From: a virus
Strand: one strand, 5' to 3'
Length of the DNA stretch: 64,000 nucleotides
Virus record (IMG/VR): IMGVR_UViG_3300025254_000001
Positions 2,123-58,320 of the stretch are shown here, piece by piece (the stretch's first letter is position 1; each line of letters begins with the position of its first letter). A program made the translations under genes and the position numbers. The notes under the pieces were generated by a model that was not told where the DNA came from, made no database searches, and was given only the letters and a program-made list of their open reading frames with translations.

Positions 2123-4126
2123 ATGAAACGCGCCTATTCGACCCTCGAAATCAAGGCCATTGGCGACGCCGGCGGCAAGCGCACGTTCACCGGCATCGCC
2201 TCGACGCCGTCGACCGACCTGATGGACGACGTCGTGATCCCGACCGGCGCGAAGTTCAAGCTGCCCGTGCCGCTGCTGTGGGGCCATGACTCGGACGACC
2301 CGATCGGCTGGGTGACCGCCGCGCGCATCTCTGCCAAGGGCATCGAGGTGGACTGCGAGGTCTACGACGAGCCCACGCCCGGCGCGCTCAAGGACTGCCT
2401 GGACACCTACTGGCAAATGCTCAAGGCCAAGCTCGTGCGCGGCCTGTCCATCGGCTTCAGCGCGATCGAGACCGCCCGCATCGAGGGCACCTACGGCCTG
2501 AAGTACCTGTCCTGGAACTGGCTCGAATTGTCCTGCGTGACGATCCCCGCCAACCAGGAGGCATCGATCACCGCCATCAAAGCGATCGACCAGGAGCAAC
2601 GACGCGCCGCGTCTGGCGCTGCTCGGGTCGTTCGCCTCAACCGGCCCGTCACGCGGGCCACCAATACACCGCCCGGCGTCTCGGGAATTCATCAATTCTC
2701 GAAAGGAAACGCCGTGAAGATCAGTGAACAAATCGCAGCCTTTGCTGCCAAGCGCGTCACCGCGGAAGAACGCATGGACGCCATCATGGCCAAGAGCGGG
2801 GACGAAGGTACCTCGCTCGACGAGCATGAAAGCGAGGAGTACGACGGCCTCGTCTCCGAAGTCAAGCGCATCGACGAGCACATCGAGCGTCTGAAGACGC
2901 ACGAGGCCCGCGTCGTCGCGCGCGCCACGCCGGTGACGGACCGGACCGTCGGCGGTGCCGGTGGGCAGGAGCAAGGCGGCGTCGAGCTGCGCGGTGGCGT
3001 CATCAGCGTCCGGCCGAACGTGGAGAAAGGCATCGCCTTCGCCCGCTACGCCATCGCGCTGGGCCGCGCCAAGGGCAACATCATGCACGCGGCCGAAATC
3101 GCCAAGCAGTGGAACGACACCACGCCCGAAGTCGCGATGTTCATCAAGCAGATCGTGCAGTACGGCTCGGTCGATGCCCTGATGAAGACCGCGGTGGCCG
3201 CCGGCACCACGTCGGACTCGGCCTGGGCCGGCCCGCTGGTCTACGCGCAGAACATGGTGAGCGAGTTCATCGAGTTCCTGCGCCCGCAGACCATCATCGG
3301 CCGGCTGCCCCAGCTGCGCCGCGTGCCGTTCAACATCCGCATCCCGCGCCAGACCGCTGGCACGTCCGGCACGTTCGTCGGCGAGGGTCTGCCCACTCCG
3401 GTGCAGAAGGCGTCGTTCGACGCGCTGACGCTCACCTGGGCCAAGGCGTCGACCATCGCGGTGCTGACCCAGGAGCTGGTGACGATGAGCAACCCGGCCG
3501 CCGACGCGCTGGTGCGCGCCGACCTGGCCGCGGGCATCGCCGCCTACCTGGACAAGCGCTTCATCGACCCGAGCTACGCGGGCGTGGCCAACGTCTCGCC
3601 GGCCTCGGTCTCGAACGGCGTGGTCTCGCGCCAGGCCAGCGGCGCGACCCTGGCGGCTCTGGACCAGGACGTCGCCTACGTCCTGCAGCAGGTCGCTGCG
3701 GCCGACGTGCCGCTGTCCTCGGCGATCTGGCTGATGTCGCCGAGCGAGGCGATCTCGCTGGGCGCGATCCGCACCGCCTACGGCGATCCGGCGTTCCCGA
3801 ACCTGGGCGTGGATGGTGGCACGTTCAAGGGCCTGCCCGTCATCACGTCCAACAGCGTGGTGTCGAGCGGCTCGCCGGGCGAGCAGCAGATTTTCCTGCT
3901 GGTGCAAGACCAGATCCTGCTGGCCGACGACGGCCAGATGCTTCTGGACATGAGCACCGAGGCGTCCGTGCAGATGAACGATGCGCCGAGCGCTGGCGCG
4001 CAATCGCTGGTTTCGCTCTGGCAGAACGGCATGGTCGGCCTGAAGTGCGACCGCTGGATCAACTGGGCCAAGCGCCGTTCGTCGGCCGTCCAGTACATCG
4101 AGGCCGCGCAGCGCTACGGCTCGTGA
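2123..4126 (+). CDS. Prohead protease / delta-like coiled coil / HK97-fold major capsid protein fusion
   Basis: 667 aa. The N-terminus (MKRAYSTLEIKA...FTGIASTPSTDLMDDVV...LLWGHD) resembles HK97 prohead protease. The middle is charged coiled coil. The C-terminal ~400 aa resemble HK97-family MCP (FIEFLRPQT...TWAKASTIAVLTQELV). SD TGGAG upstream. Confidence 0.8.
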   Translation: MKRAYSTLEIKAIGDAGGKRTFTGIASTPSTDLMDDVVIPTGAKFKLPVPLLWGHDSDDPIGWVTAARISAKGIEVDCEVYDEPTPGALKDCLDTYWQMLKAKLVRGLSIGFSAIETARIEGTYGLKYLSWNWLELSCVTIPANQEASITAIKAIDQEQRRAASGAARVVRLNRPVTRATNTPPGVSGIHQFSKGNAVKISEQIAAFAAKRVTAEERMDAIMAKSGDEGTSLDEHESEEYDGLVSEVKRIDEHIERLKTHEARVVARATPVTDRTVGGAGGQEQGGVELRGGVISVRPNVEKGIAFARYAIALGRAKGNIMHAAEIAKQWNDTTPEVAMFIKQIVQYGSVDALMKTAVAAGTTSDSAWAGPLVYAQNMVSEFIEFLRPQTIIGRLPQLRRVPFNIRIPRQTAGTSGTFVGEGLPTPVQKASFDALTLTWAKASTIAVLTQELVTMSNPAADALVRADLAAGIAAYLDKRFIDPSYAGVANVSPASVSNGVVSRQASGATLAALDQDVAYVLQQVAAADVPLSSAIWLMSPSEAISLGAIRTAYGDPAFPNLGVDGGTFKGLPVITSNSVVSSGSPGEQQIFLLVQDQILLADDGQMLLDMSTEASVQMNDAPSAGAQSLVSLWQNGMVGLKCDRWINWAKRRSSAVQYIEAAQRYGS

Positions 4127-4145
4127 TCGCCTGACGAGCCCCACG

Positions 4146-4623: not shown

Positions 4624-6234
4624 GTGCGACTCCTCGGCTTCGACATCAGCCTGCGCCGAAAGAGCGCGGCCCCGGCCGGCCTGGTGCCGCTGGGCTCCGC
4701 GGTCTGGGGCTGGCTCCGAGAGCCGTTCGCGGGTGCCTGGCAGCGCAGCGTGCAGCAGGACGGGCATGAGGCGCTGCTGGCGTTCGCCGCGGTCTTCGCG
4801 TGCGTCTCGCGCATCGCCTCGGACATCGCCAAGCTGCGCGTGCGCCTCGTCCAGCAGGACGGCGCCATCTGGGATGAAGTCACCGCGCAGTCGCCATTCT
4901 GGGGACCACTGCGCAAGCCCAATAGCTACCAGACGCGAATCCAGTTCCTGACGTCGTGGGTGATCTCGAAGCTGCTCTACGGAAACACCTTCGTGCTCAA
5001 GGTGCGCAACGACGCGCGAGGCCTGGTCACCGAGATGCACGTGCTGCATCCGCGCCTGGTCACGCCGCTGGTGGCCGAGGATGGCTCGGTCTACTACCGC
5101 CTGGGCGCCGACATGCTCGCGGAGAAGCCACTCGGCGACACGGTGCCGGCCAGCGAGATCATTCACGACCGCGGCATGACGCTGTTCCACCCGCTGGTGG
5201 GGGTCTCGCCGATCTACGCCTGCGGCGCCGCGGCCACGCAGGGCAACCGCATCCAGAGCAACAGCGCGCGGTTCTTCGAGAACATGAGCCGGCCGTCCGG
5301 CATGCTGACCGCGCCGGCCAGCATCACCGACGAGACGGCTGCGCGCCTGAAGCGCGAATGGGAAGAGAACTTCTCGGCCCAGAACATCGGACGCGTCGCG
5401 GTGCTCGGCGATGGGCTCAAGTACGAGACCATGACCATCGACGCGGTCGACGCGCAGCTGATCGAGCAGCTGCGGTGGACCGGCGAGGACGTCGCGCGCG
5501 CGTTCGGCGTGCCCGGCTACAAGATCGGCGTGGGCCCCATGCCCCTGAACAACAACGTCGAGGCGCTGGAGCAGCAGTATTACACCGGCACCCTGCAGAC
5601 CCTCATCGAGAGCATCGAGGTGCTGCTCGATGAGGGCCTGGAAATGCCCACCGGCATGGGCAGCGAGTTCGATCTCGATGGCCTGCTGCGCATGGACACC
5701 GCCACCATGTACGACTCGCTCGGCAAGGTGGTGGGCGCCGGGATCATGGCGCCCAACGAGGCGCGCGCGCGCGTGAACCTGGCCGGCGTGGCCGGCGGCG
5801 ATACGCCGTACATGCAGCAGCAGAATTGGTCGCTCGCGCAGCTCGATCGCCGCGACATCGTGGCCGACAAGCCGGGCGTCGCCTCGCCGCCGGCGCCGGC
5901 GCCCATGCCCGCCGGCACGCCGGCCGCCGCGCCGCCGCCGCCCGAGCCGAGCAAGGCGCTGGTCGAGAGCGTCGAAAAGACCGTCTCGCAGCTCGGTGAG
6001 CTGACGCAATCTGTCCAGGCTTCGGCCGACCGCTCGGCGCTCGCCGAGGCCTCGGTCAAGTCGATGCTGGAGTCCGCGCTCGCGGACATTCCCGCGGCCG
6101 TCAAGTCGGCCGTGGCCGAGCGCGCGGCCGAATTCGCAGGCCAGCGTGACGAAGACGAGGACGACGGCACCTCGGAGCTTTGCAAGCGCGGCCTGCATGC
6201 GGGCTTCAAGGAGATGCTTTATGCGCCCCGCTGA
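4624..6234 (+). CDS. Portal protein (HK97 family-like)
   Basis: 536 aa with portal-like motifs (LLYGNTFVLK, VSPIYACG, ARFFENMSRPSGML, EDVARAFGVPGYKIG). GTG start immediately after the upstream stop. Confidence 0.85.
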   Translation: MRLLGFDISLRRKSAAPAGLVPLGSAVWGWLREPFAGAWQRSVQQDGHEALLAFAAVFACVSRIASDIAKLRVRLVQQDGAIWDEVTAQSPFWGPLRKPNSYQTRIQFLTSWVISKLLYGNTFVLKVRNDARGLVTEMHVLHPRLVTPLVAEDGSVYYRLGADMLAEKPLGDTVPASEIIHDRGMTLFHPLVGVSPIYACGAAATQGNRIQSNSARFFENMSRPSGMLTAPASITDETAARLKREWEENFSAQNIGRVAVLGDGLKYETMTIDAVDAQLIEQLRWTGEDVARAFGVPGYKIGVGPMPLNNNVEALEQQYYTGTLQTLIESIEVLLDEGLEMPTGMGSEFDLDGLLRMDTATMYDSLGKVVGAGIMAPNEARARVNLAGVAGGDTPYMQQQNWSLAQLDRRDIVADKPGVASPPAPAPMPAGTPAAAPPPPEPSKALVESVEKTVSQLGELTQSVQASADRSALAEASVKSMLESALADIPAAVKSAVAERAAEFAGQRDEDEDDGTSELCKRGLHAGFKEMLYAPR

Positions 6235-7438
6235 CATTGCCGACCTGCTGAAGGCGCTCGCGATCGACGTGCGCGACTTCGTCGGGTCGTCCAGCGACGT
6301 GCTCGCCAAGCGCATCGACGCCTTGGACCAGCGGCTCGGCGAGCTGCCGGCGCCGATGGATTCCGACGCCGTCGCCAAGCTGGTGGACGCCCAGGTCACC
6401 CGCGCCCTCGGCGACTTCGTCGTGCAGGGCCTGGAGCAGGTCATCGAGCGCCTTGCCGCGGTCGAGGCGCGCGCGCCGGTTGACGGCCAGAAGGGAGACA
6501 AGGGCGATCCGGGTGAGCCGGGCGCCGCCGGCGCCGATGGCCAGGACGGACGCGATGCCGACCCCGCGGTGATCGTCGAAGAGGTCCAGCGCGCGGTCGC
6601 GGCGCTGCCCAAGCCCGCGGACGGCAAGGATGCCGACGCTGATGAGATCGCCGGGCGCGTGCTCGCCGAGGTGGTCAAGCAGATCCCGGAGCCGGTCGAC
6701 GGCAAGGATGGCCGCGACGGCGTGGACGGCAAGGATGGCGTGAGCGTCGACCTGGCCGAGATCCAGCGCATGGTGGACGCCGCGGTCGCCGCGCGCCTGG
6801 CCGAAGCGCTGGCCGCGCTGCCGGTGCCCAGGAATGGCCTGGACGGCAAGGACGGGCGCGACGGCAAGGACGGCCGTGATGGGCTCGATGGCGCCGATGG
6901 ACGCGATGCGCTGCAGCTGGAGGTGCTCGACGCGCTCGACGTCGAAAAGCGCTACCCGCGTGGCACCTTCGCGTCCTGGCGCGGCGGCCTCATCCGTTCG
7001 TTCCGGGCGACCGATCCGCTCAAGGACGCGCCCGAGCTGGAAAAGGCCGGCTGGGCGGTCGTCCTCGACGGCTTCGCCGGCCTCGACTCGACCGAGGGGA
7101 GTGACATGCGGAATTTCGGGCTGTGCTTCATCCGCACGACGGGCAAGGAGCAGACGCTGTCGTTCTTCTCGGCGGCGATGATCTGGCGCGGCATCTGGAC
7201 GGCCGAGCGCGACTACGAGCGCGGCGACGCGGTCACCTACGACGGCAGCATCTGGCACTGCGAGCGCCCCACCAGGTCGCGGCCGGGCACGCCGGCGAGC
7301 GCTGACGACTGGAAGCTCAGCGCCAAGCGGGGCCGCGATGGCAAGGACGGCCTCAAGGGCGAGAAGGGCGACCGTGGCGCCGAAGGCCGGCCTGGTCGCG
7401 ACCTCACGCAGCTCGGGTTCGACGGCAAGAAGACATGA
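6221..7438 (+). CDS. Collagen-like (Gly-X-Y) repeat protein with C-terminal CBM5/12-like motif
   Basis: Several GXY runs (GDKGDPGEPGAAGADGQDGRD; GKDGRDGVDGKDG; GLDGKDGRDGKDGRDGLDGADGRD; GRDGKDGLKGEKGDRGAEGRPGRD). Also a GDAVTYDGSIWHC...DDWKL motif. Strong SD AAGGAG 7 nt upstream of ATG 6221. Confidence 0.75.
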   Translation: MRPADIADLLKALAIDVRDFVGSSSDVLAKRIDALDQRLGELPAPMDSDAVAKLVDAQVTRALGDFVVQGLEQVIERLAAVEARAPVDGQKGDKGDPGEPGAAGADGQDGRDADPAVIVEEVQRAVAALPKPADGKDADADEIAGRVLAEVVKQIPEPVDGKDGRDGVDGKDGVSVDLAEIQRMVDAAVAARLAEALAALPVPRNGLDGKDGRDGKDGRDGLDGADGRDALQLEVLDALDVEKRYPRGTFASWRGGLIRSFRATDPLKDAPELEKAGWAVVLDGFAGLDSTEGSDMRNFGLCFIRTTGKEQTLSFFSAAMIWRGIWTAERDYERGDAVTYDGSIWHCERPTRSRPGTPASADDWKLSAKRGRDGKDGLKGEKGDRGAEGRPGRDLTQLGFDGKKT

Positions 7439-11613: not shown

Positions 11614-12294
11614 ATGAGCAACCCCAAGATCATCACCTACCCGACCACCGAGCCGATCACGCTCGAAGAGGCGCACCTGCACCTGCGGCTCGATGTCTAC
11701 GACAGCCCGCCGGTGCACCCCGACGATCCGCTGATCCTGGGACAGATCACGGCCGCGCGCGAATGGGTCGAGAAGTTCACCGGCCGCTGCATCGTCCCGT
11801 GCGTGCTGGAGCTGGCGCTCGATGACTTCCCGCACCACCAGCGCAGCAGGCATCGCTTCACGGGCTGGCTCGCCCATGCGTACCACCTGGTCGACGGGGG
11901 CTGCGCGATGCCGATCCGGCTTCCGGGCGGCCCGGTCGTCGCGCTGGAGAGCGTCACCTACGTGGACGCCGCGGGCGTCGAGCAGACCTTGACCGACGTC
12001 CAGTTCGACACCCACGAGGAGCCGGCGCGCGTGCTGCCCGCGGTGGGCGCGACCTGGCCGGTGGCGCAGCAGCAGATGGCGGCCGTGCGCGTGCGCTACG
12101 CCGCCGGCTACAGCGCGCCCGGCGACTCGCCCAACCCGGCCCCGCTGCCCGTGCCGATCAAGATGGCGATGCTGCTGGTGCTCGGGCACCTGTACGAAAA
12201 CCGCGAGAACACGACCGACGTCGCGCTGACCGAGGTGCCGCTGGGCGCCGTCGCGCTCTTGCGGCCCTACCGGCTCGAATCGGCGATGGCCTGA
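11614..12294 (+). CDS. Head-tail connector (gp6-like) protein
   Basis: 226 aa. The N-terminal ITLEEAHLHLRLD motif is typical of gp6-like connector / DNA-packaging proteins. It is the last gene of the head block. Confidence 0.65.
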   Translation: MSNPKIITYPTTEPITLEEAHLHLRLDVYDSPPVHPDDPLILGQITAAREWVEKFTGRCIVPCVLELALDDFPHHQRSRHRFTGWLAHAYHLVDGGCAMPIRLPGGPVVALESVTYVDAAGVEQTLTDVQFDTHEEPARVLPAVGATWPVAQQQMAAVRVRYAAGYSAPGDSPNPAPLPVPIKMAMLLVLGHLYENRENTTDVALTEVPLGAVALLRPYRLESAMA

Positions 12295-12325
12295 CGCCCG
12301 CCGGCGGTCCATCAGCAACCTCTAC

Positions 12326-12500
12326 GCGCCGGCCGCGGCGGTAGGCAAGGGCAATCGATCGGGTTTTCCGATCCTCGCGGCCTGGCGGTAGGCGGCGACT
12401 AGGCAATTCGTCTGGCCTATGCGCGGGCCAGGCACCGTAGGCGGTGCCAATCGGTTGATTTCAGCTAAGTCCGCGGGTTGGCGGTAGGCGGAATCTGTCG
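12326..12500. repeat. Four iteron-like direct repeats, core GGCGGTAGGC
   Basis: Cores at 12337, 12384, 12433 (CACCGTAGGC) and 12480, spaced 47/49/47 bp. Most are followed by CAATCG/CAATTCG. Confidence 0.65.
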
Positions 12501-12605
12501 ATGAATTGCAGCTATAAACGCCGACCTGAATTAGACCGGAGTAATCGGCTCCGGCGGCCAGGGCGCAAAAATAATATCTATCCTCGGCGGCTCGAATTAG
12601 TTCAC

Positions 12606-12804
12606 GCCAAAAATATCGGCGCGCGGATTTAATAGACCTCAGCTTTTGCACAATATTTAAGCGGTGCACTTCTAAGCTATTGATTTAATTGAGAAAAACG
12701 TCTTCGATAGCTGAGTTTTCGCGAGGTGGGTAAGGGGGTTGTGGGGCCAAAGCGAAAAATCGCTTGGCGGGCCTTTACGCGCGTTTTAGCGGGGTGTGAT
12801 TTCG
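12606..12804 (+). repeat. AT-rich non-coding element, copy A (paralog of 56172-56348)
   Basis: Aligns with copy B: GCCAAAAAT..CGGC..TTAA..CTAAGCTnTTGATTT..TCGAnAGC..AGGTGG.AAGGGGTT.T.GGGCC..CGAAAAATCGC..TTTACGC. Indels break any common reading frame. Confidence 0.7.
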
Positions 12805-12907
12805 CACAGTAGTTCGCCGGCGCGCGTCGTGCAATTAATTGAAATCTTGAGCGGAGAGACTTGACAATGGCCGGAATTCGTTGGCGGTTTGCGCGAGTGG
12901 GGTCGGC

Positions 12908-13270
12908 GTGAGGGCCGGCCAGCTCAACGCCCGCCTGGTGGTCGAGCGCCCCGGGGTGTCGCGCGACGACATGGGCTCCGAGCTGATCACGTGGGTGAAG
13001 GTCGCCACCGTCTGGGCGCACATCGCGCCGATCGTTCCCGCGCGCGGGCGCGAGCCGCTGCTGGCCGACCAGCTCCAGGGCCAGGCCGACACCCGGATCA
13101 CGATCCGCTGGTCCGATCAGATCGACGGCATGTCGGCCAAGTGGCGCCTGCGCTTTGCCACGCTCAAGAACCCGATCATCTACAACATCGCGACGCCGCC
13201 CGCGCAGCTCGACATGGGCCAGCGCACGGTCGTCATCATTTGCAAATCCGGCGTCAATGAGGGGCAGTGA
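12908..13270 (+). CDS. Head-tail adaptor (head-closure) protein
   Basis: About 120 aa. AGQLNARLVVERP...WVKVATVWAHI...RITIRW pattern is typical of SPP1 gp16/HK97-like adaptors. GTG 12908 preferred over TTG 12881. Confidence 0.7.
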   Translation: MRAGQLNARLVVERPGVSRDDMGSELITWVKVATVWAHIAPIVPARGREPLLADQLQGQADTRITIRWSDQIDGMSAKWRLRFATLKNPIIYNIATPPAQLDMGQRTVVIICKSGVNEGQ

Positions 13271-13744: not shown

Positions 13745-16066
13745 ATGACCGCGCCGCTCATCCTCTATACGGACTGCATCGACGGTCCGACTACGGGGGG
13801 CGAGGGCGGCAAGGGCTGCTACCTCGGCGTCTTCGGCACGGGCTTCGGCACCTTCGCGGATTGGGGCGTCTCCAACCACCTGACTATCGACGGCGTCGAG
13901 GTCGACAACTACCGCTGCCTGGACGCCGCGGTCGGCGTGGCCCTCCATGGCCCGCAGATCCAGCGCCTGGAGGTGCAGGTGGGCGCGCTGGGCGCGCCCG
14001 CGCCCGGCACGCCGCTGGCGATCGACATGACCGTGGGCGGCGTCAGCCCGTCGAACCCGACGTCGGGCGGTTTCCTGCTCGACCCCGTCGATGGCGAGGT
14101 GCTGTCGTTCACGCGTTCGCTCGTGGGGATCGTCTTCGTGGACCCGGCCACGGGCAGCAACTCCAACCCGGGCACGATCGCCTCACCGCTGGCCAACCTG
14201 CAGTCGGCGGACGCAGCCGCAGGGGCGATCCGCGCGGCGTCGGCATCGAACGCCACCGATGGCAGCCCGCCGCAGCACGTCATCCTGCGCGGCGGCTTGC
14301 ACCCGCAGCTCGGCTCCTCATCGACGCCGACTCGCAACTACGGCAGCTTCGCCAACCTGTTTCGCAATAGCGGCGCGCGCCCGCTGGGCGGCGCGAACCA
14401 GGGCAACCTGGTGATCAAGAGCTACCCGGGCCCGGCCGGCGCCAACGCGCCCGAGCTGGCGCGCTTTGAGCCCACCAGCGGCAACCACGCCGGCGCGGGC
14501 ATCCTCGGCAACGATTCCGCACGCGGCTCGCACGCGGGCTCGCCCGAGACCAACCCCTACGATGGCGATCCTGGTTGGGGCCGCGACTGGGTGCTCTCCT
14601 CGGTCAAGATCGCGAGCGCGCCGGACGCGCCGCGCGATGGCGCGCCGGTCAACTTCGATTCCGACGCGGACCGCTGCCGCCTGGTCAACTGCGACCTGGC
14701 CTGGCCCAGCACGCTGGGCACCTCGGGCGGCAACAACGGCGCCAAGGGCGGCGGCTTCACCGGCAACGGGTTCAAGCTGCGGGTCTATGGCCTGTATGTG
14801 CACAACGTCACCAATGGCGACGATGCGAACCAGAACCATGGTGGCTACATCGACGGCTCGAACGTCTGCGCCAAGAACCCGATCGTCGCCTACTGCCGCT
14901 TCGAGGACTGCAGCGGCGGCAACAGCTTCCAGACCTTCGACTCGCAGGCGTCGGACGTCATCACCGACCTGCGCTTCCACCACAACTCGGCGTTGCGCTG
15001 CAACAAGCACAACGTCAACGTCTCGCAGAACACCGAGAGCGGCGAGGTCCACGACAACATCCTGGTCGACGCCGGCGAGGCCAACATCCACGTCGAGGGC
15101 GGCCAGATTGCGGTCGCGGCCGGGGTCAAGTTCTTCAACAACACCTGCGTCGACTGGGGCCGGGTCATCGCTGGCCGGCCGTGCTTCTGGAACGATGGCG
15201 GCACCGGCTCGGGTTCGGTCGATTGGCGCAACAACATCGCGATGCGCCGCGCGGGCGCCGCTGGCACCGGGCCCTTCGTCATCTTCGACATGGACGGCAC
15301 GAACGCGTCCACGCACAACCTCTACTTCGACGCCACGGGCGTGCTGACCGGCGTTCCCGGTGGCGACACCGGCAGCGTCTATGGCGACCCGTTCTTCAGC
15401 GACCCGGCCGCCAACGACTTTTCGATTCAAGCCACCAGCCCGCAGAGCCCTGTGATCGACGCCGGCGCTTCGACGCTGACGGCGCGCACGCTCGCCTACC
15501 TGTTCAACGCGGTCGTGGCCCCGCCCGACGTCGGAGCCTACGAATTCGCGTCCGGCGCGCCCACGCCGTCGCCTTCACCGCCGCCCCCTTCACCGTCACC
15601 GCCGCCATCTCCTTCGCCGCCCCCGTCGCCCACGCCGTCGCCGGCACCCACTCCCGCACCGTCGCCACCTCCGGCGCCCACCCCGATGCCCTCCCTTTCG
15701 GTTCCGCAAGCCATCTTCGCGGCGCTCCGATCGCTGGTCGACGATCGCGTCTACCCGAACACGTTCCCGCAGGGAGACCCGCTGCCTGTGTGGCCCGCGG
15801 TGCGCTACACGATCGTGTCCACCAACCCGGCGCCAACCGTGTGCGGCAGTGACGGCGAGGACATCGATGACGTGACGGTGTTCATCGACGCCGTGGCGGT
15901 GACCTATCCCGCGATGCGGGCGCTGAAGGCGCAGGTGATCGCGGCGCTGGAAGACACCGATCCACCGTGCGTGCGCCAGAGCGGCGGCACCGAGACCTTC
16001 GACGGCGAGACGCGCACGAATCGCGCGATCTTGACCTACCTGTTCCAGCAGTCCTCGGCGCCGTAG
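13745..16066 (+). CDS. Fusion protein: IPT-like domain, right-handed beta-helix, Pro/Ser/Thr linker, DUF3168-like tail-terminator domain
   Basis: 773 aa. Beta-helix-type repeats (NHGGYIDGSN..., RFHHNSALRCNKHNVNV..., HDNILVDAGEANIHVEGG). Linker PSPSPPPPSPSPPPSPSPPPSPTPSPAPTPAPSPPPAPTP. The C-terminal ~125 aa (IFAALRSLVDDRVYPNTFPQ...VFIDAVA) look like DUF3168. Confidence 0.7.
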   Translation: MTAPLILYTDCIDGPTTGGEGGKGCYLGVFGTGFGTFADWGVSNHLTIDGVEVDNYRCLDAAVGVALHGPQIQRLEVQVGALGAPAPGTPLAIDMTVGGVSPSNPTSGGFLLDPVDGEVLSFTRSLVGIVFVDPATGSNSNPGTIASPLANLQSADAAAGAIRAASASNATDGSPPQHVILRGGLHPQLGSSSTPTRNYGSFANLFRNSGARPLGGANQGNLVIKSYPGPAGANAPELARFEPTSGNHAGAGILGNDSARGSHAGSPETNPYDGDPGWGRDWVLSSVKIASAPDAPRDGAPVNFDSDADRCRLVNCDLAWPSTLGTSGGNNGAKGGGFTGNGFKLRVYGLYVHNVTNGDDANQNHGGYIDGSNVCAKNPIVAYCRFEDCSGGNSFQTFDSQASDVITDLRFHHNSALRCNKHNVNVSQNTESGEVHDNILVDAGEANIHVEGGQIAVAAGVKFFNNTCVDWGRVIAGRPCFWNDGGTGSGSVDWRNNIAMRRAGAAGTGPFVIFDMDGTNASTHNLYFDATGVLTGVPGGDTGSVYGDPFFSDPAANDFSIQATSPQSPVIDAGASTLTARTLAYLFNAVVAPPDVGAYEFASGAPTPSPSPPPPSPSPPPSPSPPPSPTPSPAPTPAPSPPPAPTPMPSLSVPQAIFAALRSLVDDRVYPNTFPQGDPLPVWPAVRYTIVSTNPAPTVCGSDGEDIDDVTVFIDAVAVTYPAMRALKAQVIAALEDTDPPCVRQSGGTETFDGETRTNRAILTYLFQQSSAP

Positions 16067-30552: not shown

Positions 30553-31563
30553 ATGAAGCGCGTTCTCTGCCTCTTGCTGTCGTTCCTGGTGCTGGGCGCG
30601 AGCGCCGCGCCATTCGCCACGCGCGACAACGTCCTGCTCGATCCGTCCGGCTCACCGTTCATCGTGCGTGGCTTCAACCGCACGCACTACGACAACTGGG
30701 GCACGCCGGCCGACGCGCAGCGCATCGGGGCGAACACGGTTCGCATCGTCTACAACTTCACGAAGCCGGAAGCCAGCAACCTCGCGCTGGCGCAGTCCTA
30801 CGTCGCCGCTGGCATCGTCCCCATTCCGGGCAACTGGACGGGCACCTGCAAGGCTGACCCGGCCATCCTCTCGGCGATCGTCGACACCTGGGTGGCGCAG
30901 GCCGCCACCTGGACGCAGCTGAACCACTCCGGCATGGTCAACATCGCCAATGAATGGGGACCGTCGTCCTGGGTGCAGCAGCTGGTCAAGCCATGGGCGC
31001 GCCTGCCCGTCTACACCTGGCGTGATGCCTACGTCGCCGCGGTGCCGCGGATGCGCGCCGCCGGCTACTTGGGAACGCTGGTGATCGATGCGCCCGCGTG
31101 CGGCCAGGACGCCAATGCGGTGGTCAGGGACGGGGCCGCCATCATTGCCGCCGACCCGCTGAAAAACATCCTGTTCGACCTGCACGTCTATGGTGGCTGG
31201 CACCTGGCCACGCCGACCACGCCGACCCTGTCGTGGCAGCAGGATTATGAGAAGGCGATGCTGGCGCTCAAGGCCAGCGGCCTGCCCATCATCCTGGGTG
31301 AGTTCGGGCCGGGCCGCGGCATCGGGCCGTCGCCGACCATGGTCTCGCCCACGAGGATCATCAGGGACGCCGAGGCCAATGGCTGGGGCTGGATGGCCTG
31401 GTCGGTCGACGACAACAACCTGGCGAACTGCACGGCCGACGACAACTGGTTTTCGATGACCCGCAAGTGCGGGACGTACAGCGGCGCCGCCAGCGACTTG
31501 ACCATCTTCGGCTCGCAGATCGTGCCGCTGCTGCAGGTGCTGGCCAAGCCCGCCAGCATGTAG
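30553..31563 (+). CDS. Secreted glycoside hydrolase family 5 (mannanase/cellulase-like)
   Basis: 336 aa. Signal peptide MKRVLCLLLSFLVLGASAAP. GH5 signatures NIANEWGP (acid/base Glu), HVYGGW and ILGEFGP (nucleophile Glu). Confidence 0.7.
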   Translation: MKRVLCLLLSFLVLGASAAPFATRDNVLLDPSGSPFIVRGFNRTHYDNWGTPADAQRIGANTVRIVYNFTKPEASNLALAQSYVAAGIVPIPGNWTGTCKADPAILSAIVDTWVAQAATWTQLNHSGMVNIANEWGPSSWVQQLVKPWARLPVYTWRDAYVAAVPRMRAAGYLGTLVIDAPACGQDANAVVRDGAAIIAADPLKNILFDLHVYGGWHLATPTTPTLSWQQDYEKAMLALKASGLPIILGEFGPGRGIGPSPTMVSPTRIIRDAEANGWGWMAWSVDDNNLANCTADDNWFSMTRKCGTYSGAASDLTIFGSQIVPLLQVLAKPASM

Positions 31564-43570: not shown

Positions 43571-43594
43571 CGCCCGGTAAAGCCGGGCGTTTTT
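43571..43594 (+). terminator. Hairpin plus T-run after the tRNA-His fragment
   Basis: CGCCCGG-TAAAG-CCGGGCG followed by TTTTT. It would terminate the reconstituted tRNA gene after integration. Confidence 0.5.
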
Positions 43595-44805
43595 CATGGT
43601 CTGGGGAATTCCTGGGGAATTTTCGGGTCGGCGCCCGCTGCCTGGGCTGCCTGGGCCGCGCCCAGCGTGCGTTCGAGCTTGGCCATCTCGACCTGGTCGC
43701 CCGCGCCAGGAATCCACTTGGCGTAGGTGCTGAGAAACACCTCGACGCTGTGGCCCATCTGGCCGGCGCAGAACGCCGGGGTCATGCCCGCCATCAGCAT
43801 CATCGTCGCGTAGGTGTGGCGGGTGTTGTAGGGCTCGCGGTAGCGGATGCCCAGGCGCTTGAGGGTCGGCTTCCAGAACGACCGGCCGTAGGGGCGCACG
43901 CCCTCCCAACGCACGCCGTAGCGCGGATCGTGGAACACGTGCCCGCCGGCCAGGGAGGTGTGGGCCCGCTGGCGCGTCAGCGCGGCCAGCGCTCGGCTGT
44001 TGAGGTGCAGCCGGCGCGCCGTGTCGGTCTTGGTCCGGTCGACCTCCTCGCCCTGGACGACGCCTTCGACGATCGAGACGTAGCCTGAGCGCAGGTCGAC
44101 GTTGGGCCAGCGCAGGCCGAACGCCTCGCTGGTGCGCAGGCCCATGTAGAACTTCGCCTCGGTGAAGTTGACCACCTGGGCGTCGTAGTGCGCGGCCATG
44201 TCGGCGATGATCAGATCCGCCTCGGCCTGCGTGAAGGGGTCGATCTCCGGCCGCTGCCACTTGGCGCGCGGGATGTTCTCGGCCGGGTTGTCCGTCAGCA
44301 GCTTGTCCAGCACCGCGAGCGCGAGCGCCTCGCGCAGCACGCTCACGTAGTTGTTGACGGTCTTGCCCGACAGGCGGCGCTTGGTGGCCAGGGCGAGCAA
44401 GAGGTCGCTGGTCTTGAGGCTGCGCAGCGCTCGCTCGCCGAGCGGCATCTTGGCGCCTTCGGGCTGGGCGTTCGACCAGAACGTGACGGCCGACTTGTAG
44501 CTGTTGTGTGTACTGGTGGCGATGCGCTGGGCGGCCAGCCAATTCTTCAGCTGGGTAGAGAGGGTGGTCTGCGCGGCGCCGGCGCCGCTGGCCGGGAAGA
44601 ATTCGGCCATGCTGAACCGGTCGTGCGCGATGGCATCGCGAATGTCGTCGGCCAGGCGCGCCGCGTACTTGATGTTGGCTGGCGTGGGCGCCATCGGCGC
44701 GCCGTCGACCATCAGCGTGCGCTTGATGGGCGTGCCGTCGAGGATGAATGTCAACCGGAGCGAGTTCTCGCGAATCTCGACGCCCTTGGTCTTGGCCTTG
44801 GTCAT
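43594..44805 (-). CDS. int: Tyrosine integrase
   Basis: 403 aa. RHTYATMMLMAG and LSTYAKWI catalytic-region motifs, with an N-terminal arm-binding-type domain. Confidence 0.9.
   Translation of the reverse strand: MTKAKTKGVEIRENSLRLTFILDGTPIKRTLMVDGAPMAPTPANIKYAARLADDIRDAIAHDRFSMAEFFPASGAGAAQTTLSTQLKNWLAAQRIATSTHNSYKSAVTFWSNAQPEGAKMPLGERALRSLKTSDLLLALATKRRLSGKTVNNYVSVLREALALAVLDKLLTDNPAENIPRAKWQRPEIDPFTQAEADLIIADMAAHYDAQVVNFTEAKFYMGLRTSEAFGLRWPNVDLRSGYVSIVEGVVQGEEVDRTKTDTARRLHLNSRALAALTRQRAHTSLAGGHVFHDPRYGVRWEGVRPYGRSFWKPTLKRLGIRYREPYNTRHTYATMMLMAGMTPAFCAGQMGHSVEVFLSTYAKWIPGAGDQVEMAKLERTLGAAQAAQAAGADPKIPQEFPRP
43601..43622 (+). repeat. Arm-type integrase-binding candidates (P' arm): CTGGGGAATTC, CTGGGGAATTT
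   Basis: Tandem 11-mers related to the P-arm repeats and in the same orientation. They lie within the int 3' end. Confidence 0.5.
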
Positions 44806-51533: not shown

Positions 51534-51818
51534 GTGAACACCTTCGCACCCCTCGCCGATCTGCCGCTGGATGAAGACGTCCGGCGCCTGCTTGAGGCCC
51601 ATCGCGGCCAGTGGAAAACCATCGCCCATGCCTCGGGCGTGAGCTACTCCTGGCTCTCCAAATTCTCGCGTCGCACGATCTCGAACCCGGGATTCGCGAC
51701 CCTGCAGCGCCTGCGCTTCTGCCTCCTGCAGGCGCCGCTGCCGCCGCGGTTGCCGCCCGTGCCGCCGCCCGCCGCCCGCCTGCCTGCCAACCTGCCCGCC
51801 GTCGCGAGTGCGAAATGA
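51534..51818 (+). CDS. Cro/CII-like HTH protein
   Basis: About 94 aa. WKTIAHASGVSYSWLSKFSRR helix-turn-helix. Start uncertain: GTG 51534 would be near-leaderless; TTG 51498 is the alternative. Confidence 0.5.
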   Translation: MNTFAPLADLPLDEDVRRLLEAHRGQWKTIAHASGVSYSWLSKFSRRTISNPGFATLQRLRFCLLQAPLPPRLPPVPPPAARLPANLPAVASAK

Positions 51819-52737
51819 TCGCGTCGACCTCTCCGGGGGTGACGGCGTGATCGTCGACCCCGACTTCCTCGACCACTGGCGCACTGGCATGGTGGTCGAC
51901 GCGTTGGCCGACCCGATGGCACCGCTGTACATCCTTCGCCTCTGGGCCCATTGCCAGGAGCGCAGGTCGGACACGTTCGTGATGCCGGCGCGCGGCGTCA
52001 AGTCGCAATGCAAGTGCCCGGCCGATGCCGACGTCTTCGAGGCCGCGCTCATCGAGGCCGGCTTCCTGAAGCGCGATGGCGCCACGATCACCGTGCTCGG
52101 CTGGTCTGAGAAGAACGCGTCGCTGCTCGCCGCATGGAAGAACGGCATCAAGGGTGGCCGTCCCAAAAAGAACCCAGATGAAACCCCTGGGAAACCCACC
52201 GGTAACCCAGCCCGAACCCAGCCCGAACCCATGGGCAACCCAGACGAAACCGATAAGAGAAGAGAAGAGAAGAACTCTCCTTCACTACGTTCAGGAGAGG
52301 ACCCGGCGCGCAAGCGCGCTACCCCTGCGCCCGTCGAGATCGTGCCGGCCTCGGTGCTCGTGGCGGCTGGATTCGATGCCAAGACCGCCTCGGACTTCAT
52401 CGCGCACAAGGCTGCGCACAAGGCGCCGCTGACGCCGCGGGCGTGGGCCGACCACCAGCGCGAGGCGCTCAAGGCCGGCTGGACGCCGGTGCAGGCGGCC
52501 GAGAAGGTCATGGCCAAGTCCTGGAAGGGCTTCGAGGCGAAGTACGTCCGTGACGAGCACCCGCCGACGCGCCACGGCCCGCTGATCGAGACCTTCCGCC
52601 AGCGCGACGAGCGCGACGCCGCTGAGAAGGTGGCCTTCCTCACCGGCCGCCTGCCGGGCAATGGCGCGGCCCGCCCGGCGCAAGCCGACTTCATCGACGC
52701 CGAGGTGACCGATGTCACTCCCCGACAGCTGGGTTGA
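51808..52737 (+). CDS. Replication-organiser protein with DnaT-like C-terminal domain
   Basis: About 300 aa. The C-terminal LVAAGFDAKTASDFIAHKAAHKAPLTPRAWADHQREALKAGWT resembles phage DnaT/O-type domains. Start uncertain. Confidence 0.45.
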   Translation: MRNDRVDLSGGDGVIVDPDFLDHWRTGMVVDALADPMAPLYILRLWAHCQERRSDTFVMPARGVKSQCKCPADADVFEAALIEAGFLKRDGATITVLGWSEKNASLLAAWKNGIKGGRPKKNPDETPGKPTGNPARTQPEPMGNPDETDKRREEKNSPSLRSGEDPARKRATPAPVEIVPASVLVAAGFDAKTASDFIAHKAAHKAPLTPRAWADHQREALKAGWTPVQAAEKVMAKSWKGFEAKYVRDEHPPTRHGPLIETFRQRDERDAAEKVAFLTGRLPGNGAARPAQADFIDAEVTDVTPRQLG

Positions 52738-55351: not shown

Positions 55352-55555
55352 ATGGGCGTCGCGATGGTCGCCGTCTCGATGAATCCCCGCGTTGAGCTGG
55401 TCAGCTGCCGTGACGGCTGCGGGCTCCAAGCCACCGCCGAACAAGCCGAACACCAGGGCTGGACGCTGCTGGCCGTGCAAGGTCGGTGGCGCTGCCCAGC
55501 CTGCGCGCTCGCTCTCAGGCGAGCGAGCGAACCCGCCCCGCAACCAGCATCGTGA
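55352..55555 (+). CDS. Small zinc-ribbon-like protein
   Basis: About 67 aa. CRDGCG...CPAC motif. Start uncertain (55352 or 55364). Confidence 0.4.
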   Translation: MGVAMVAVSMNPRVELVSCRDGCGLQATAEQAEHQGWTLLAVQGRWRCPACALALRRASEPAPQPAS

Positions 55556-55568
55556 AGGAGGACTGAAC

Positions 55569-55958
55569 GTGCAGCACGCCATCAACAACGACGACGTCAT
55601 CCTCAACGACTTGCTCGGCCGCTGGCACCGCTGGGCCTGCGATTACCGGACCGCGGTGGGCTACCCCTCCGCTGCCGCATACCTGGCGCAGTACCGGACC
55701 AGCCGCCAGTACGACGACGTCAACGGCGCCCTGGACGGCGACGTCGAGAACTGCATCATGAGCGGCGTGGACGGCTGCCTGAATTCCGTGCCCCAGCCCT
55801 ACCGCAACGCGCTGCACCTGAACGCGCGCAACCTGGTCACCGGCCTGACGGTCTGGCGCTCGCCGCGCCTGCCGGTCGACGACATGGAGCGCGCGCAAAT
55901 GGTGGCCGAGGCCCGCGCGATGCTGATCAAGCGCCTGCGCGTCCGGGAAATGCTGTGA
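55569..55958 (+). CDS. Putative late-gene regulator, Q-like antiterminator (QuuD/phage-82-type pattern)
   Basis: 129 aa. GTG start with strong SD GAAGGAGGA. LLGRWHRWA...YPSAAAYL echoes LERWGAWA...SSIAAGF of Q-type antiterminators. It is the last gene of the early-right operon and is followed by a terminator. Confidence 0.45.
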   Translation: MQHAINNDDVILNDLLGRWHRWACDYRTAVGYPSAAAYLAQYRTSRQYDDVNGALDGDVENCIMSGVDGCLNSVPQPYRNALHLNARNLVTGLTVWRSPRLPVDDMERAQMVAEARAMLIKRLRVREML

Positions 55959-56043
55959 TCGAGCAGCCGGTCGAGTCGTAATTCCCAGCCCGGCGCTTGA
56001 CACGCAGGACCGCGCCGAATTACATTTTCGCCCGAGGCCACCA

Positions 56044-56078
56044 GCCGCGACCACGTCCGACGTGAACGCGGCTTTTTT
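56044..56078 (+). terminator. Intrinsic terminator ending the early-right operon
   Basis: Long imperfect hairpin GCCGCGACCACGTC-C-GACGTGAACGCGGC followed by TTTTTT. Confidence 0.65.
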
Positions 56079-56096
56079 GTGCCCAATTAACCCGTG

Positions 56097-56117
56097 ATTC
56101 GTGGCACAGAAAACGAG
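56097..56117 (-). promoter_or_regulatory. Degenerate copy of the island promoter motif (ATTCGTGGCACAGAAAACGAG)
   Basis: Together with the following ~30 nt it aligns with 56964-57012. The -10 equivalent is weak (ACGAAT). Confidence 0.3.
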
Positions 56118-56171
56118 CCTGCGGGATTAATTTCACCTATGACGCAGCGCCTGGCCGGCCATGCGGGAATT

Positions 56172-56348
56172 GCCCAAAAATGCGGCATTGCCCAATTAAG
56201 TGGCAGGGCATTCCTAAGCTGTTGATTTGGTGGAAGAAAACCCCCTCGACAGCGCTCTTATCGCAAGGGTGGCAAGGGGTTAGTAGGGCCGATCCCGAAA
56301 ATCGCGGTACGCAGGGTTTACGCCCCGATGCGAGGAAGTGTCGATTTT
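56172..56348 (+). repeat. AT-rich non-coding element, copy B (paralog of 12606-12804)
   Basis: Aligns with copy A over about 180 nt. It lies between the + terminator (56044-56078) and the - terminator (56393-56421). Confidence 0.7.
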
Positions 56349-56392
56349 CTATGGGCTGGGCCGTCGTTGCGTTGTCGGCTCGCCGGCAGCTC

Positions 56393-56436: not shown

Positions 56437-56592
56437 TCAGACCCTCTTGAAAATCCCGGTGCTCTTGACGATGAGCTTCATCTGGTAGCGCAGGGTGGTG
56501 ACTGCCTTGACGTTGCCGATCAGCGGTGCGACTGCGGCGCGGTAGTTGGCGATCTCTTCGGGCGTAGCCGGGCGGGTCGTGCGGGTGGTCAT
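56437..56592 (-). CDS. Small hypothetical protein (51 aa; below the ORF-track length cut-off)
   Basis: My translation: MTTRTTRPATPEEIANYRAAVAPLIGNVKAVTTLRYQMKLIVKSTGIFKRV. SD GAAGGAG upstream. Confidence 0.5.
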   Translation of the reverse strand: MTTRTTRPATPEEIANYRAAVAPLIGNVKAVTTLRYQMKLIVKSTGIFKRV

Positions 56593-56673: not shown

Positions 56674-56937
56674 CTATCGTGGGACGTCGCGGGTGACGAC
56701 CCGGTGCTTGCCCAAGCCGGTGTCGATCACCGACTCGAACCTGCACTCAGCCACGCGGGTGCCGGCGGGCGTGTAGCGGTTGATGATCTTGAGCAGGCGG
56801 CACTCAACGATCTGGCCGGCTACGAACTCGTTCTTGGTGAGCCAGACCTTGAACCGAAGGCCGATCGCGCCCTTGGCCATCGGCTCGGCTCGTGCGGCCA
56901 GCTTCGCGTTCTGCTCGTCCTGGGTCATCGCGTACAT
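56674..56937 (-). CDS. Hypothetical protein
   Basis: 87 aa. SD AAGGAGAG. Island promoter motif about 27 nt upstream. Confidence 0.55.
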   Translation of the reverse strand: MYAMTQDEQNAKLAARAEPMAKGAIGLRFKVWLTKNEFVAGQIVECRLLKIINRYTPAGTRVAECRFESVIDTGLGKHRVVTRDVPR

Positions 56938-56963: not shown

Positions 56964-56985
56964 ATTGTGGCACAGGAAAAGAGCC
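56964..56985 (-). promoter_or_regulatory. Island promoter motif copy (minus strand CTTTTCCTGTGCCACAAT)
   Basis: TGn-extended -10-like CACAAT upstream of gene 56674-56937. Confidence 0.5.
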
Positions 56986-57568
56986 TGCGGCGCTAAATGC
57001 ACCTATGGGCGGACTGCAGCCATCCCAGTTCCTTGATCGGTGCTGGTGGATCGAGGCTCTAGAGGGCCGGACGCGTTTAGAAGCCCGTAGCCGAACTCGA
57101 ATCGGTGGCTGTGGGTAAGGGTTGGGAGGTCGACGATCGCCGTCTACGCGCCCGATACGCGCGTTGGTTTGGCGCCATAGACCGACCTGCCTGGCCTGCT
57201 GGCCGACCTGCACGCCGCGCCCGCCAGCCCACTCGCTCCGGTCCGGTCGCCCAGCCCAGCCCGTCCAGCTCGGCGTCGCCTATCGCTGCTGCTGCACCAT
57301 CTGTGGCCTGGCCATCGCCGCTGCCCGCCCATCCACCCTGCCTATCGGTGGGGGGCCTGCCGCACACCCTGGTCATCCCCACGCTAGAGCGGCGTCGAGG
57401 TGTTGCGCACGTGGCCGAGGGTTGGCGAGGGGGTGGTTTGCAATTGCCCCAGCAAGGCCCATAGGTGGTCCTGCAGTGGGGTCGGTGAGGCGGGCAGGTA
57501 GTCCAGGGGTTGCCTGGGCCTGCCGAGGTCCCGCAGGGCCCATCCCGGGCCTCGGCGGGGCATTGACG

Positions 57569-57876: not shown

Positions 57877-58320
57877 ATGCACGGGGTCCTCCCCGAGAGT
57901 CCTGCTCGTTGCAGGAAGCCCGCTCCACTCCTTCGTCCGATGCCCTGGTCCGCGCCCACCGTCTGCTGTCGGGCTGGTTGCCGAGAGCTGGTCAAGGTGC
58001 CCGGCTACTGCGACGCGCACCGGGCCGAGAACTACCGCGAGTACAACGCCAAGCGCGCTGGCCGCAACCTGCAGACCGACAGGTGGTATCACACGGCGCG
58101 CTGGCAGCGCCTGCGCAAATCGGTCCTGGACGCCGAGCCGCTGTGCCGCATGTGCACCGCTGCTGGCCGGGTGACGCTGGCCGTGCTGGTCGACCACATC
58201 AAGCCGGTCAAGTTCGAGGGCGAGTTCTGGGACCGTGGCAACCTCCAGCCGCTGTGCAACCACTGCCACGAGATCAAGAGCCAGGCCGAGGGATCGCGGT
58301 CGCGGCCGGTTGCGCGTTGA
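57877..58320 (+). CDS. HNH endonuclease
   Basis: CRAGC...YCDAH and LVDHIKPV...NLQPLCNHCHEIK motifs. Start uncertain (ATG 57877 or 57940). Confidence 0.75.
   Translation: MHGVLPESPARCRKPAPLLRPMPWSAPTVCCRAGCRELVKVPGYCDAHRAENYREYNAKRAGRNLQTDRWYHTARWQRLRKSVLDAEPLCRMCTAAGRVTLAVLVDHIKPVKFEGEFWDRGNLQPLCNHCHEIKSQAEGSRSRPVAR

Follow-up and report, generated by a model that had tools for sequence, protein, structure and literature searches.

The stretch analysed here, 64,000 nucleotides of the virus record IMGVR_UViG_3300025254_000001 (hereafter the window), represents almost the whole genome (~66.1 kb) of a temperate siphovirus; the missing 2.1 kb are present on contig L109, which joins the end of the window to its start. 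The row of virion genes in this genome is interrupted by a non-coding island of 613 bp (12295–12907, plus strand), which runs from the stop codon of a head-tail adaptor gene to the start codon of a head-closure gene. The island is very probably an accessory, lineage-specific insertion of non-coding DNA and not a replication origin. Within the island, three modules form a mosaic: four degenerate tandem units of ~48 bp (module A, 12330–12520, plus strand), a copy of a ~175-nt intergenic element (module B, 12632–12805, plus strand, with weaker similarity back to ~12560) and a promoter-like site with a new ribosome-binding region for the head-closure gene (module C). As to its function, we tentatively propose that the island could be a spacer that is transcribed through and that counters polarity by controlling elongation, using sites that resemble the ops element of RfaH-dependent operons.

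Insertion between two connector genes

A low-G + C interruption of about 610 bp, poor in open reading frames (ORFs) and situated between the head and tail modules, had been noted in the original prediction. The interruption itself was borne out. The G + C content of the entire island was 0.563, with a minimum of 0.45 (12500–12699) compared to 0.70–0.75 in the flanks, and it is the largest low-G + C tract of the window. Its ORFs had a G + C content at third codon positions (GC3) of 0.50–0.65, vs 0.87–0.95 in the neighbouring genes, and do not carry the codon signature of the genome. Six-frame translations of the island gave no Pfam match at E<=1 and no trace of a decayed gene, and the public gene callers left the gap empty. 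ARAGORN found no tRNA or tmRNA in the island, no terminator was found in it, and a permissive Rfam search of the island and of the second module B copy at 56 kb (see below) returned chance-level matches only. The GC skew of the sense strand was +0.14 in the island and +0.20 in its AT-rich half, with flanks of ~0. The location, however, had to be refined: the island does lie between virion genes, but since adaptor and head-closure genes are both connector genes, it interrupts the connector set and not the head/tail boundary as such.

The adaptor gene (Ad1, gp6-like; 11614–12294, plus strand; PF05135, phrog_442/40) encodes 226 aa in public assemblies and has a GC3 of 0.95; its stop codon forms the left edge of the insertion. 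The head-closure gene (Hc1; 12908–13270, plus strand; PF05521) encodes a 120-aa product that is found exactly on public contigs. Alignment with L001 and L002 fixed its true start at the GTG at 12908, where the relatives have ATG. Its translational coupling to the adaptor gene is lost in the window phage.

In the closest island-free relative in IMG/VR (head-closure protein 91% identical, adaptor/head-closure 91–92%) the junction reads ...atggcgTGAcgacATGagggcc..., with a gap of 4 nt. A gap of 4–5 nt between the two genes was seen on 12 contigs (L001, L019, L009–L018), which comprise all relatives found outside the sub-lineage; the head-closure proteins of island-free relatives are 68–92% identical and their flanking proteins 65–92%. 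The island itself occurs in two haplotypes only, the window type at 100% identity (L006, L007, L201–L205) and a second one at ~93% (L002, L200). L008 contains only the last 83 nt of the island (95% identical), its contig ending inside it. Exact island strings retrieved only contig 3300025250_000017 from IMG/VR and none from the JGI metagenomes. Collections of 50,697 phage and 72,556 plasmid records contained no DNA similar to the island, and a genome-collection scan with the head-closure protein gave no matches.

Assembly data from sample ERZ27251304 point in the same direction. A 61.8-kb contig from this sample starts at window position 12914, and a 2.2-kb contig containing the adaptor gene and the island ends at ~13054. 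The two overlap by 141 nt at k = 141, the pattern expected of a branch in the assembly graph at the right edge of the island; judging from these contig coordinates, variants that differ just upstream of the head-closure gene probably coexist in the sample. The tight junction in relatives, the presence of only two haplotypes and the assembly breaks at the edge together argue for a recent, dispensable insertion. Deletion without effect had been named as an outcome that would speak against a role in replication, transcription or packaging; as regards viability the region can indeed be deleted in nature, since island-free relatives exist.

Terminal inverted repeats were not found at the island ends, a convincing target duplication was not found either, and the junctions share at most CG. 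An origin from an insertion sequence (IS) or a miniature inverted-repeat transposable element was rejected, because there are no terminal inverted repeats and the 9-nt repeat ACGCCCGCC (12294 and 12927) does not fit the geometry of integration. The island resembles phage morons in being inserted between genes that abut in relatives, in its lower G + C content and in having a promoter-like site. In contrast to morons, it contains neither a gene nor a terminator and its cargo is non-coding, so that a moron in the sense of a gene with its own promoter and terminator was rejected as well.

That the connector-region gene row accepts insertions is shown by a relative with 68% identity: upstream of its adaptor gene, a free-standing gene for an HNH_3 endonuclease (L009/L010, 763–1314) has been inserted among methyltransferase genes, in opposite orientation. 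The row also varies at a second position, that of the 773-aa ORF at 13745–16066, of which only the C-terminus matched, to tail terminator proteins. At its position, relatives have a 380-aa protein (PF11367) or separate proteins of 60–69 and 127–139 aa.

A scar of modular recombination was among the options of the original prediction. By origin the island is an insertion, and to that extent this proposal stands; that it is a functionless scar is somewhat unlikely, and was kept as a rival reading. The island would then be a decayed moron or free-standing homing-endonuclease cassette, or foreign intergenic DNA captured by illegitimate recombination, tolerated through read-through of late transcription, with the repeats as leftovers of a tandem duplication. 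This is consistent with its dispensability, with a low G + C content like that of foreign DNA, with the absence of an ORF, a terminator or an RNA-family match, with the insertion of an HNH gene elsewhere in the L009 gene row, and with the lack of any relative in the phage and plasmid collections searched. If so, the island would represent ordinary phage mosaicism and the idea of a second origin could be dropped. However, no protein trace was left in any reading frame, three identical 10-mers survived in module A while the rest of the units drifted, and the island has diverged less than the synonymous sites next to it.

Between the two haplotypes, 6.4% of the island sites differed, while third codon positions of the three nearest genes differed by 9.8%, 10.1% and 13.2% (10–13% at the neighbouring synonymous sites) and those of the next gene by 21.5%. 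Long invariant stretches comprised unit 1 with the hairpin that follows it; the palindrome, the first predicted IHF site and core 4; the second predicted IHF site; and the hexamers of the promoter-like site. The slower divergence of the island hints at constraint. This comparison of sequences argues only modestly against free drift of the island, as a recent sweep or recombination would look alike.

Repeat array and putative elongation control

The four direct repeats of module A were confirmed in position and sequence. Cores 1 (12337–12346), 2 (12384–12393) and 4 (12480–12489) read GGCGGTAGGC, followed by AA in the first and by GG in the other two; core 3 (12433–12442) is the variant CACCGTAGGC and, as originally described, sits in a perfect palindrome, GCACCGTAGGCGGTGC (12431–12446). 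All four are on the plus strand. The A-rich GCCAAAAAT-type boxes of the second half of the island were also present as stated. The start-to-start spacing of the cores is 47, 49 and 47 nt, or 47, 51 and 45 nt when GTAGGC is kept in register. Of dinucleotide shuffles of the island, 7 of 2000 contained some 10-mer at least three times; elsewhere in the 64 kb GGCGGTAGGC has one further exact copy, on the opposite strand. The likeness between units extends beyond the core (CGCGGnCC..GGCGGTAGGCGG..CAATCG, with a 31-nt stretch 61–71% alike), which makes module A an array of four degenerate ~48-bp tandem units. Conservation in relatives was partial: the other haplotype keeps three of the four cores unchanged, with core 2 reading GGTGGTAGGC, and the repeats are absent outside the sub-lineage. 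Mimicry of clustered regularly interspaced short palindromic repeats (CRISPR), type III antitoxin arrays and CsrA sponges were considered and rejected, given the short period, the divergence of the units and the absence of repeated GGA loops.

Matches to the IHF consensus WATCAANNNNTTR numbered three in the 64 kb, compared to 0.10 expected; two of them are in the island and one is in the 56-kb copy of module B. Both island matches have an A/T tract nearby and are predicted IHF sites: AATCAACCGATTG at 12448–12460 (minus strand, between repeat units 3 and 4) and AATCAATAGCTTA at 12673–12685 (minus strand, in module B).

Repeats followed by an AT-rich tract had led to the proposal of a theta-type origin, in which iterons lie beside an unwinding tract and an IHF site. 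As in lambda ori, pSC101 and R6K gamma, direct repeats are indeed followed by a tract of 45% G + C with predicted IHF sites, and one relaxed DnaA box (TTWTNCACA) was matched by TTTTGCACA at 12644–12652. Nevertheless the proposal failed and an origin at this position is very improbable. Close relatives whose row of structural genes is otherwise shared lack the island, and none of the 72,556 plasmid records searched had similarity to it. Iterons are usually units of ~17–22 bp with a helically phased spacing of ~22 bp, whereas the core here is 10 bp in units that are only 60–70% alike and 45–49 bp apart. Moreover, in lambda ori the iterons lie within the initiator gene O. The initiator-like gene of the window phage (ORF 51808–52737) is 39 kb from the island and has an array of its own, unrelated to GGCGGTAGGC: eight or nine tandem 11-bp units, (G/A/T)AACCC-N5, at 52159–52251 (plus strand). 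From its place and layout, this array is probably the real iteron origin of the phage.

What the cores do resemble is ops, with the sequence GGCGGTAGCGTG and the consensus GGCGGTAGnnTG. RNA polymerase paused at ops exposes the element on the non-template strand, which recruits the antiterminator RfaH (PMC5995543, PMC9562583). G4, G5, A7 and G8 of ops are indispensable for RfaH binding, and the TG at positions 11–12 serves pausing, T11G being among the most damaging substitutions (PMC5995543). A pause is dispensable for RfaH loading if the polymerase is slow, and complexes halted at C9 or G10 can be loaded as well (PMC5995543, PMC9562583). RfaH is reported to counter silencer filaments on AT-rich DNA (PMC9765446), and rfaH genes are widespread in Proteobacteria, some being carried by plasmids and prophages (PMC7593976).

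The 10-mer begins with the eight bases GGCGGTAG, the invariant, RfaH-contacting part of ops. Three exact copies (the first in core 1) lie on the sense, i.e. non-template, strand of the late operon, with C3:G8, G4, G5, T6 and A7 intact in units 1, 2 and 4. The other haplotype differs in its cores by a single substitution, C3 to T, which leaves a T-G pair with G8. In the whole window GGCGGTAG occurs 8 times, compared to 1.47 expected, a number reached in none of 100 shuffles; three of the eight are clustered in the island, and the other five, mostly on template strands inside genes, look like chance. With an offset of one base, units 2 and 4 (GGCGGTAGGC|GG) still agree with the pause pattern G(-10) Y(-1) G(+1). 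The array occupies an untranslated gap in mid-operon, ahead of ~16 kb of co-oriented tail genes. The likeness to the ops/JUMPStart elements of the Escherichia coli rfa, rfb, kps, hly and tra operons consists of three copies of GGCGGTAG on the non-template strand of a long operon, before AT-rich DNA and a long series of genes.

On this basis the elongation-control reading would work as follows. Late-operon transcription would run through the island, where an untranslated, AT-rich gap of 600 nt would normally invite Rho-dependent polarity and the binding of silencer proteins. The island may carry its own remedy against both. RNA polymerase would pause at the ops-like sites, and the GGCGGTAG thereby exposed in the non-template strand would load an RfaH-type NusG paralogue of the host, which would keep elongation processive across the spacer and the ~16 kb of tail genes behind it. 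The G-rich, C-poor sense strand would be a poor Rho substrate, IHF would bend the DNA of the island, and the promoter-like site may add to transcription of the head-closure and tail genes.

Several observations weigh against this proposal. The T11-G12 pause dinucleotide, present in all validated E. coli ops sites, is missing from all four units, which read GGCGGTAGGCAA or GGCGGTAGGCGG. In unit 3, G4 is changed to C. The hairpins between the units are not conserved in the other haplotype, in which the hairpin at 12411–12430 is broken. The island also differs from ops/JUMPStart in its setting, a phage late operon, and in being mid-operon, with four tandem copies instead of one; to our knowledge, ops sites are single and lie in promoter-proximal leaders, not in four-copy arrays within an operon. 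A tblastn search of the 64-kb window with RfaH and NusG sequences gave no match. The array would furthermore be redundant if the Q-like system at 55.4–56.1 kb already makes the late operon resistant to termination. Finally, the 10-mer also matches a Gordonia phage cos overhang and the array of contig L115 (both described below), so that the match to ops is not unique.

A working ops-like array would, as far as a full-text literature search goes, be the first known case of RfaH-type recruitment by a phage inside a structural operon, and it would show how non-coding DNA settles in a tightly coupled operon without polar damage. The stronger version, in which the island is a mobile non-coding cassette whose ops-like array loads the host RfaH-type NusG paralogue in mid-operon and protects the tail genes from Rho and silencers, is unlikely. 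If true, the phage would use a xenogene-activating antiterminator of its host, on an element that can be inserted into operons without polarity.

An internal promoter and a protein-binding array, both put forward originally, are possible readings of the island. In the latter, which we regard as improbable, the cores and IHF sites would form a nucleoprotein complex on double-stranded DNA, such as a foreign terminase or cos-like site, the arm sites of a recombinase or the sites of a regulator. Direct repeats combined with IHF sites are a layout resembling lambda cosB or the attP arms, and the integrase of the phage has an arm-binding domain. In lambda cosB (R sites and the IHF site I1) several short repeats likewise have an IHF site among them; the island differs from it in being far from the terminase genes. 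The 10-mer is the core of the 3' cos overhang of Gordonia cluster CT phages, CGGCGGTAGGCTT (PMC10652937), and CGGCGGTAGGC in unit 1 matches 11 of the 13 bases of this overhang. Three copies of the 22-mer GGCGGTAGGCCAAGGCTGGAGG are found on L115 (IMGVR_UViG_3300015214_000314, G + C content 0.41; 378–496), in an AT-rich non-coding tract between divergent genes that is near a portal gene and 1.7 kb from a probable terminase gene.

Against a binding array, neighbouring sites would be on opposite faces of the helix, as the 47-bp spacing corresponds to 4.5 helical turns. CGGTAGGC was absent from the terS region of the phage and from the 2.1 kb upstream of it, outside the window; it had no consistent position in the loci of 80 TerS relatives, and the motif was not found upstream of terS there. 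This makes a cos reading weak here, and a cos site at the island, 12 kb from terS, was rejected. A second working cos site in mid-genome would be lethal. The integrase gene has its own low-G + C neighbourhood, 31 kb away, without the motif.

A scan of IMG/VR for pairs of GGCGGTAGGC yielded mostly coding repeats with spacings in multiples of 3 (tail-fibre-like NTAVGY repeats). Non-coding arrays were found only on L115 and L117, neither homologous to the island. The L115 array has the 10-mer in common with the island and is otherwise unrelated. On L117 (IMGVR_UViG_2671180820_000001, G + C content 0.73; reverse complement, 219–320) five intergenic GGTAGG(C/G) boxes spaced by ~10–15 nt are followed by an inverted CCTACCGCCTACCGCC.

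Repeated intergenic element and promoter-like site

Self-comparison of the window revealed that 12646–12802 is paralogous to 56188–56347 (Smith-Waterman score 95, compared to 26.6 +/- 3.7 for shuffles). The second copy of module B (56174–56349, plus strand) lies just past a late-promoter-like site and terminator, within a 1.8-kb block (56.08–57.87 kb) that is absent from the island-free relative; there the HNH gene directly follows the terminator. Another copy, 83% identical to the 56-kb copy, is located next to the same small genes in a related phage of 66.7 kb (L102/L103), and a further copy, 79% identical to that of the island, is present on a JGI contig (L108) with housekeeping genes of bacterial type. 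An nhmmer profile of five sequences, run against 1.3 Mb of fetched DNA, found full copies only at these places. A related phage with the 56-kb element also has the island (L200), and the phage without the one is without the other. In three copies (that at 56 kb in the window, L103 and L108) the element is situated ~90 nt beyond the stop codon of a small, oppositely oriented gene.

The centre of the element, CTAAGCTnTTGATTT-N8-AAAAC, is invariant and equals a perfect IHF consensus with an A-tract; in the island this is the predicted site at 12673–12685, with AAAAA at 12694–12698. It lies in a stem, AGCTATTGA / TCGATAGCT (12675–12712, plus strand), which in the island has 9 bp and an A-rich loop of 20 nt. 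The stem (consensus AGCTnTTGA/TCGAnAGC, 8 pairs in the consensus fold) is kept in all five sequences. One of its pairs covaries, being A-T in two, G-C in two and G-T in one sequence, although five sequences are too few for a covariation test. On these alignments, module B defines a hitherto undescribed, small family of conserved intergenic elements, each with a predicted IHF site in a covarying stem, occurring in phage accessory regions and on the one contig with bacterial-type housekeeping genes. The strong conservation of the family core across three or four independent contexts, including the covarying stem, also speaks against the functionless scar discussed above. No conserved sigma-70-type promoter or terminator was found in module B on either strand.

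An exact lambda-type boxA, CGCTCTTA, occurs inside the 56-kb copy (56253–56260) and is missing from the other copies. A genome-collection scan for CTAAGCTNTTGATTT..AAAAC gave 79 matches, which share the IHF-type motif alone and not the element; in effect the scan reached generic IHF sites. A partial G-rich motif of the element recurs at 57108–57130.

The 56-kb copy and two small minus-strand genes (56437–56592 and 56674–56937) are flanked by a 41-nt direct repeat (56101–56141 and 56967–57007, 83% identical), a bracket that looks like a cassette slot. On L103 equivalent 41-nt repeats surround a larger cargo of five small genes.

The position of these copies relative to genes raises the possibility of an antisense RNA cassette, which is improbable in our view. 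As an upstream regulatory region read on the minus strand, module B would drive an RNA of ~300 nt that contains the four repeats as GCCUACCGCC and runs antisense to the last part of the adaptor gene. On L108 the element, as its reverse complement, is located 140 nt upstream of a DUF488 gene, and the 41-nt repeat of the 56-kb copy 30–70 nt upstream of an 87-aa minus-strand gene. The minus strand of the island also folded better, relative to shuffles, than the plus strand (z = -4.1 vs -1.4), but this score is based on 20 shuffles only, and the second haplotype disrupts the hairpin at 12411–12430. Searches of the minus strand for a sigma-70-like promoter or a terminator found neither, and the RNA from this strand would be C-rich and G-poor, a good Rho substrate. 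The G-T intermediate in the stem fits an RNA from the plus strand and not one from the minus strand.

Among known repeat families, the island can be compared with the bacterial interspersed mosaic elements (BIMEs) and repetitive IHF-binding palindromic (RIP) elements of enterobacteria, in which repetitive extragenic palindromic (REP) sequences flank an IHF site. It shares with them a short, repeated, intergenic mosaic structure, an IHF site, a location past gene 3' ends and a GTAG motif. It differs in that its units are direct repeats and not inverted pairs, in its very low copy number, and in that the units are not palindromic except for unit 3, which has GTAG in the loop of the palindrome. 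A link to REP-associated tyrosine transposases was rejected: the IS200-like gene of L108 has its own 25-nt inverted repeats, unrelated in sequence. This gene encodes a Y1 transposase (2638–4143), with perfect 25-nt inverted repeats and a 441-bp tandem duplication of its 5' part; the L108 element lies ~800 nt from it and has the DUF488 gene on its other side, 140 nt away.

In module C an AT-rich tract is followed by a sigma-70-like site, TTGAAA-18-GACAAT (12839–12868, plus strand), which lies 40 nt before the start of the head-closure gene. It was the only such site found, compared to 0.1 expected. The second haplotype has the same two hexamers and one change in the spacer (12857).

Setting in the phage genome

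The gene order begins with terS (17–499) and terL (426–2063), followed by a protease-capsid fusion gene (2123–4126) and the portal gene (4624–6234); the tail genes run to ~28 kb. A collagen-repeat protein with a carbohydrate-binding module is encoded after the portal gene (6146–7438) and a GH5 cellulase-like protein after the tail genes (30553–31563). The integrase gene (43594–44805, minus strand) is followed by RecT, and the replication gene (51808–52737) by RusA. A partition site was rejected as a role for the island: a scan of ~55 window ORFs revealed neither ParA nor ParB, and an integrase is encoded by the phage. Signals of the host are mixed: the adaptor family is named after the Burkholderia phage phiE125 (Betaproteobacteria-like), whereas the tail proteins are alpha-like.

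The Q-like gene (55392–55958) has no Pfam match. It is followed by the late-promoter-like site and terminator (55997–56080, in the region 55989–56080), which consist of TTGACA-18-TACATT, a hairpin GCCGCG..CGCGGC and then TTTTTTG. This layout is like that of lambda PR' and is shared by L020 and L021; the region had a weak Rfam match to isrK (E = 4.5).

The HNH gene is located at 57877–58320. Between it and terS (58.3–64 kb and L109 3878–5882) lie a block of minus-strand genes (DUF932, DUF488-like, methyltransferase, DUF6011) and then a DAM-like/GNAT gene on the plus strand. The contig of the island-free relative ends ~400 nt past HNH, and the 80 closest TerS relatives do not include the TerS of that phage; from these two observations, the two phages may package their DNA differently. 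On L020 (IMGVR_UViG_3300006237_000019) repeats of GGTAGGGGAAAACCCC and TAACCCTAACCC are found ~300–400 nt past HNH, at the end of the contig (4080–4197), and may be the cos region of that phage.

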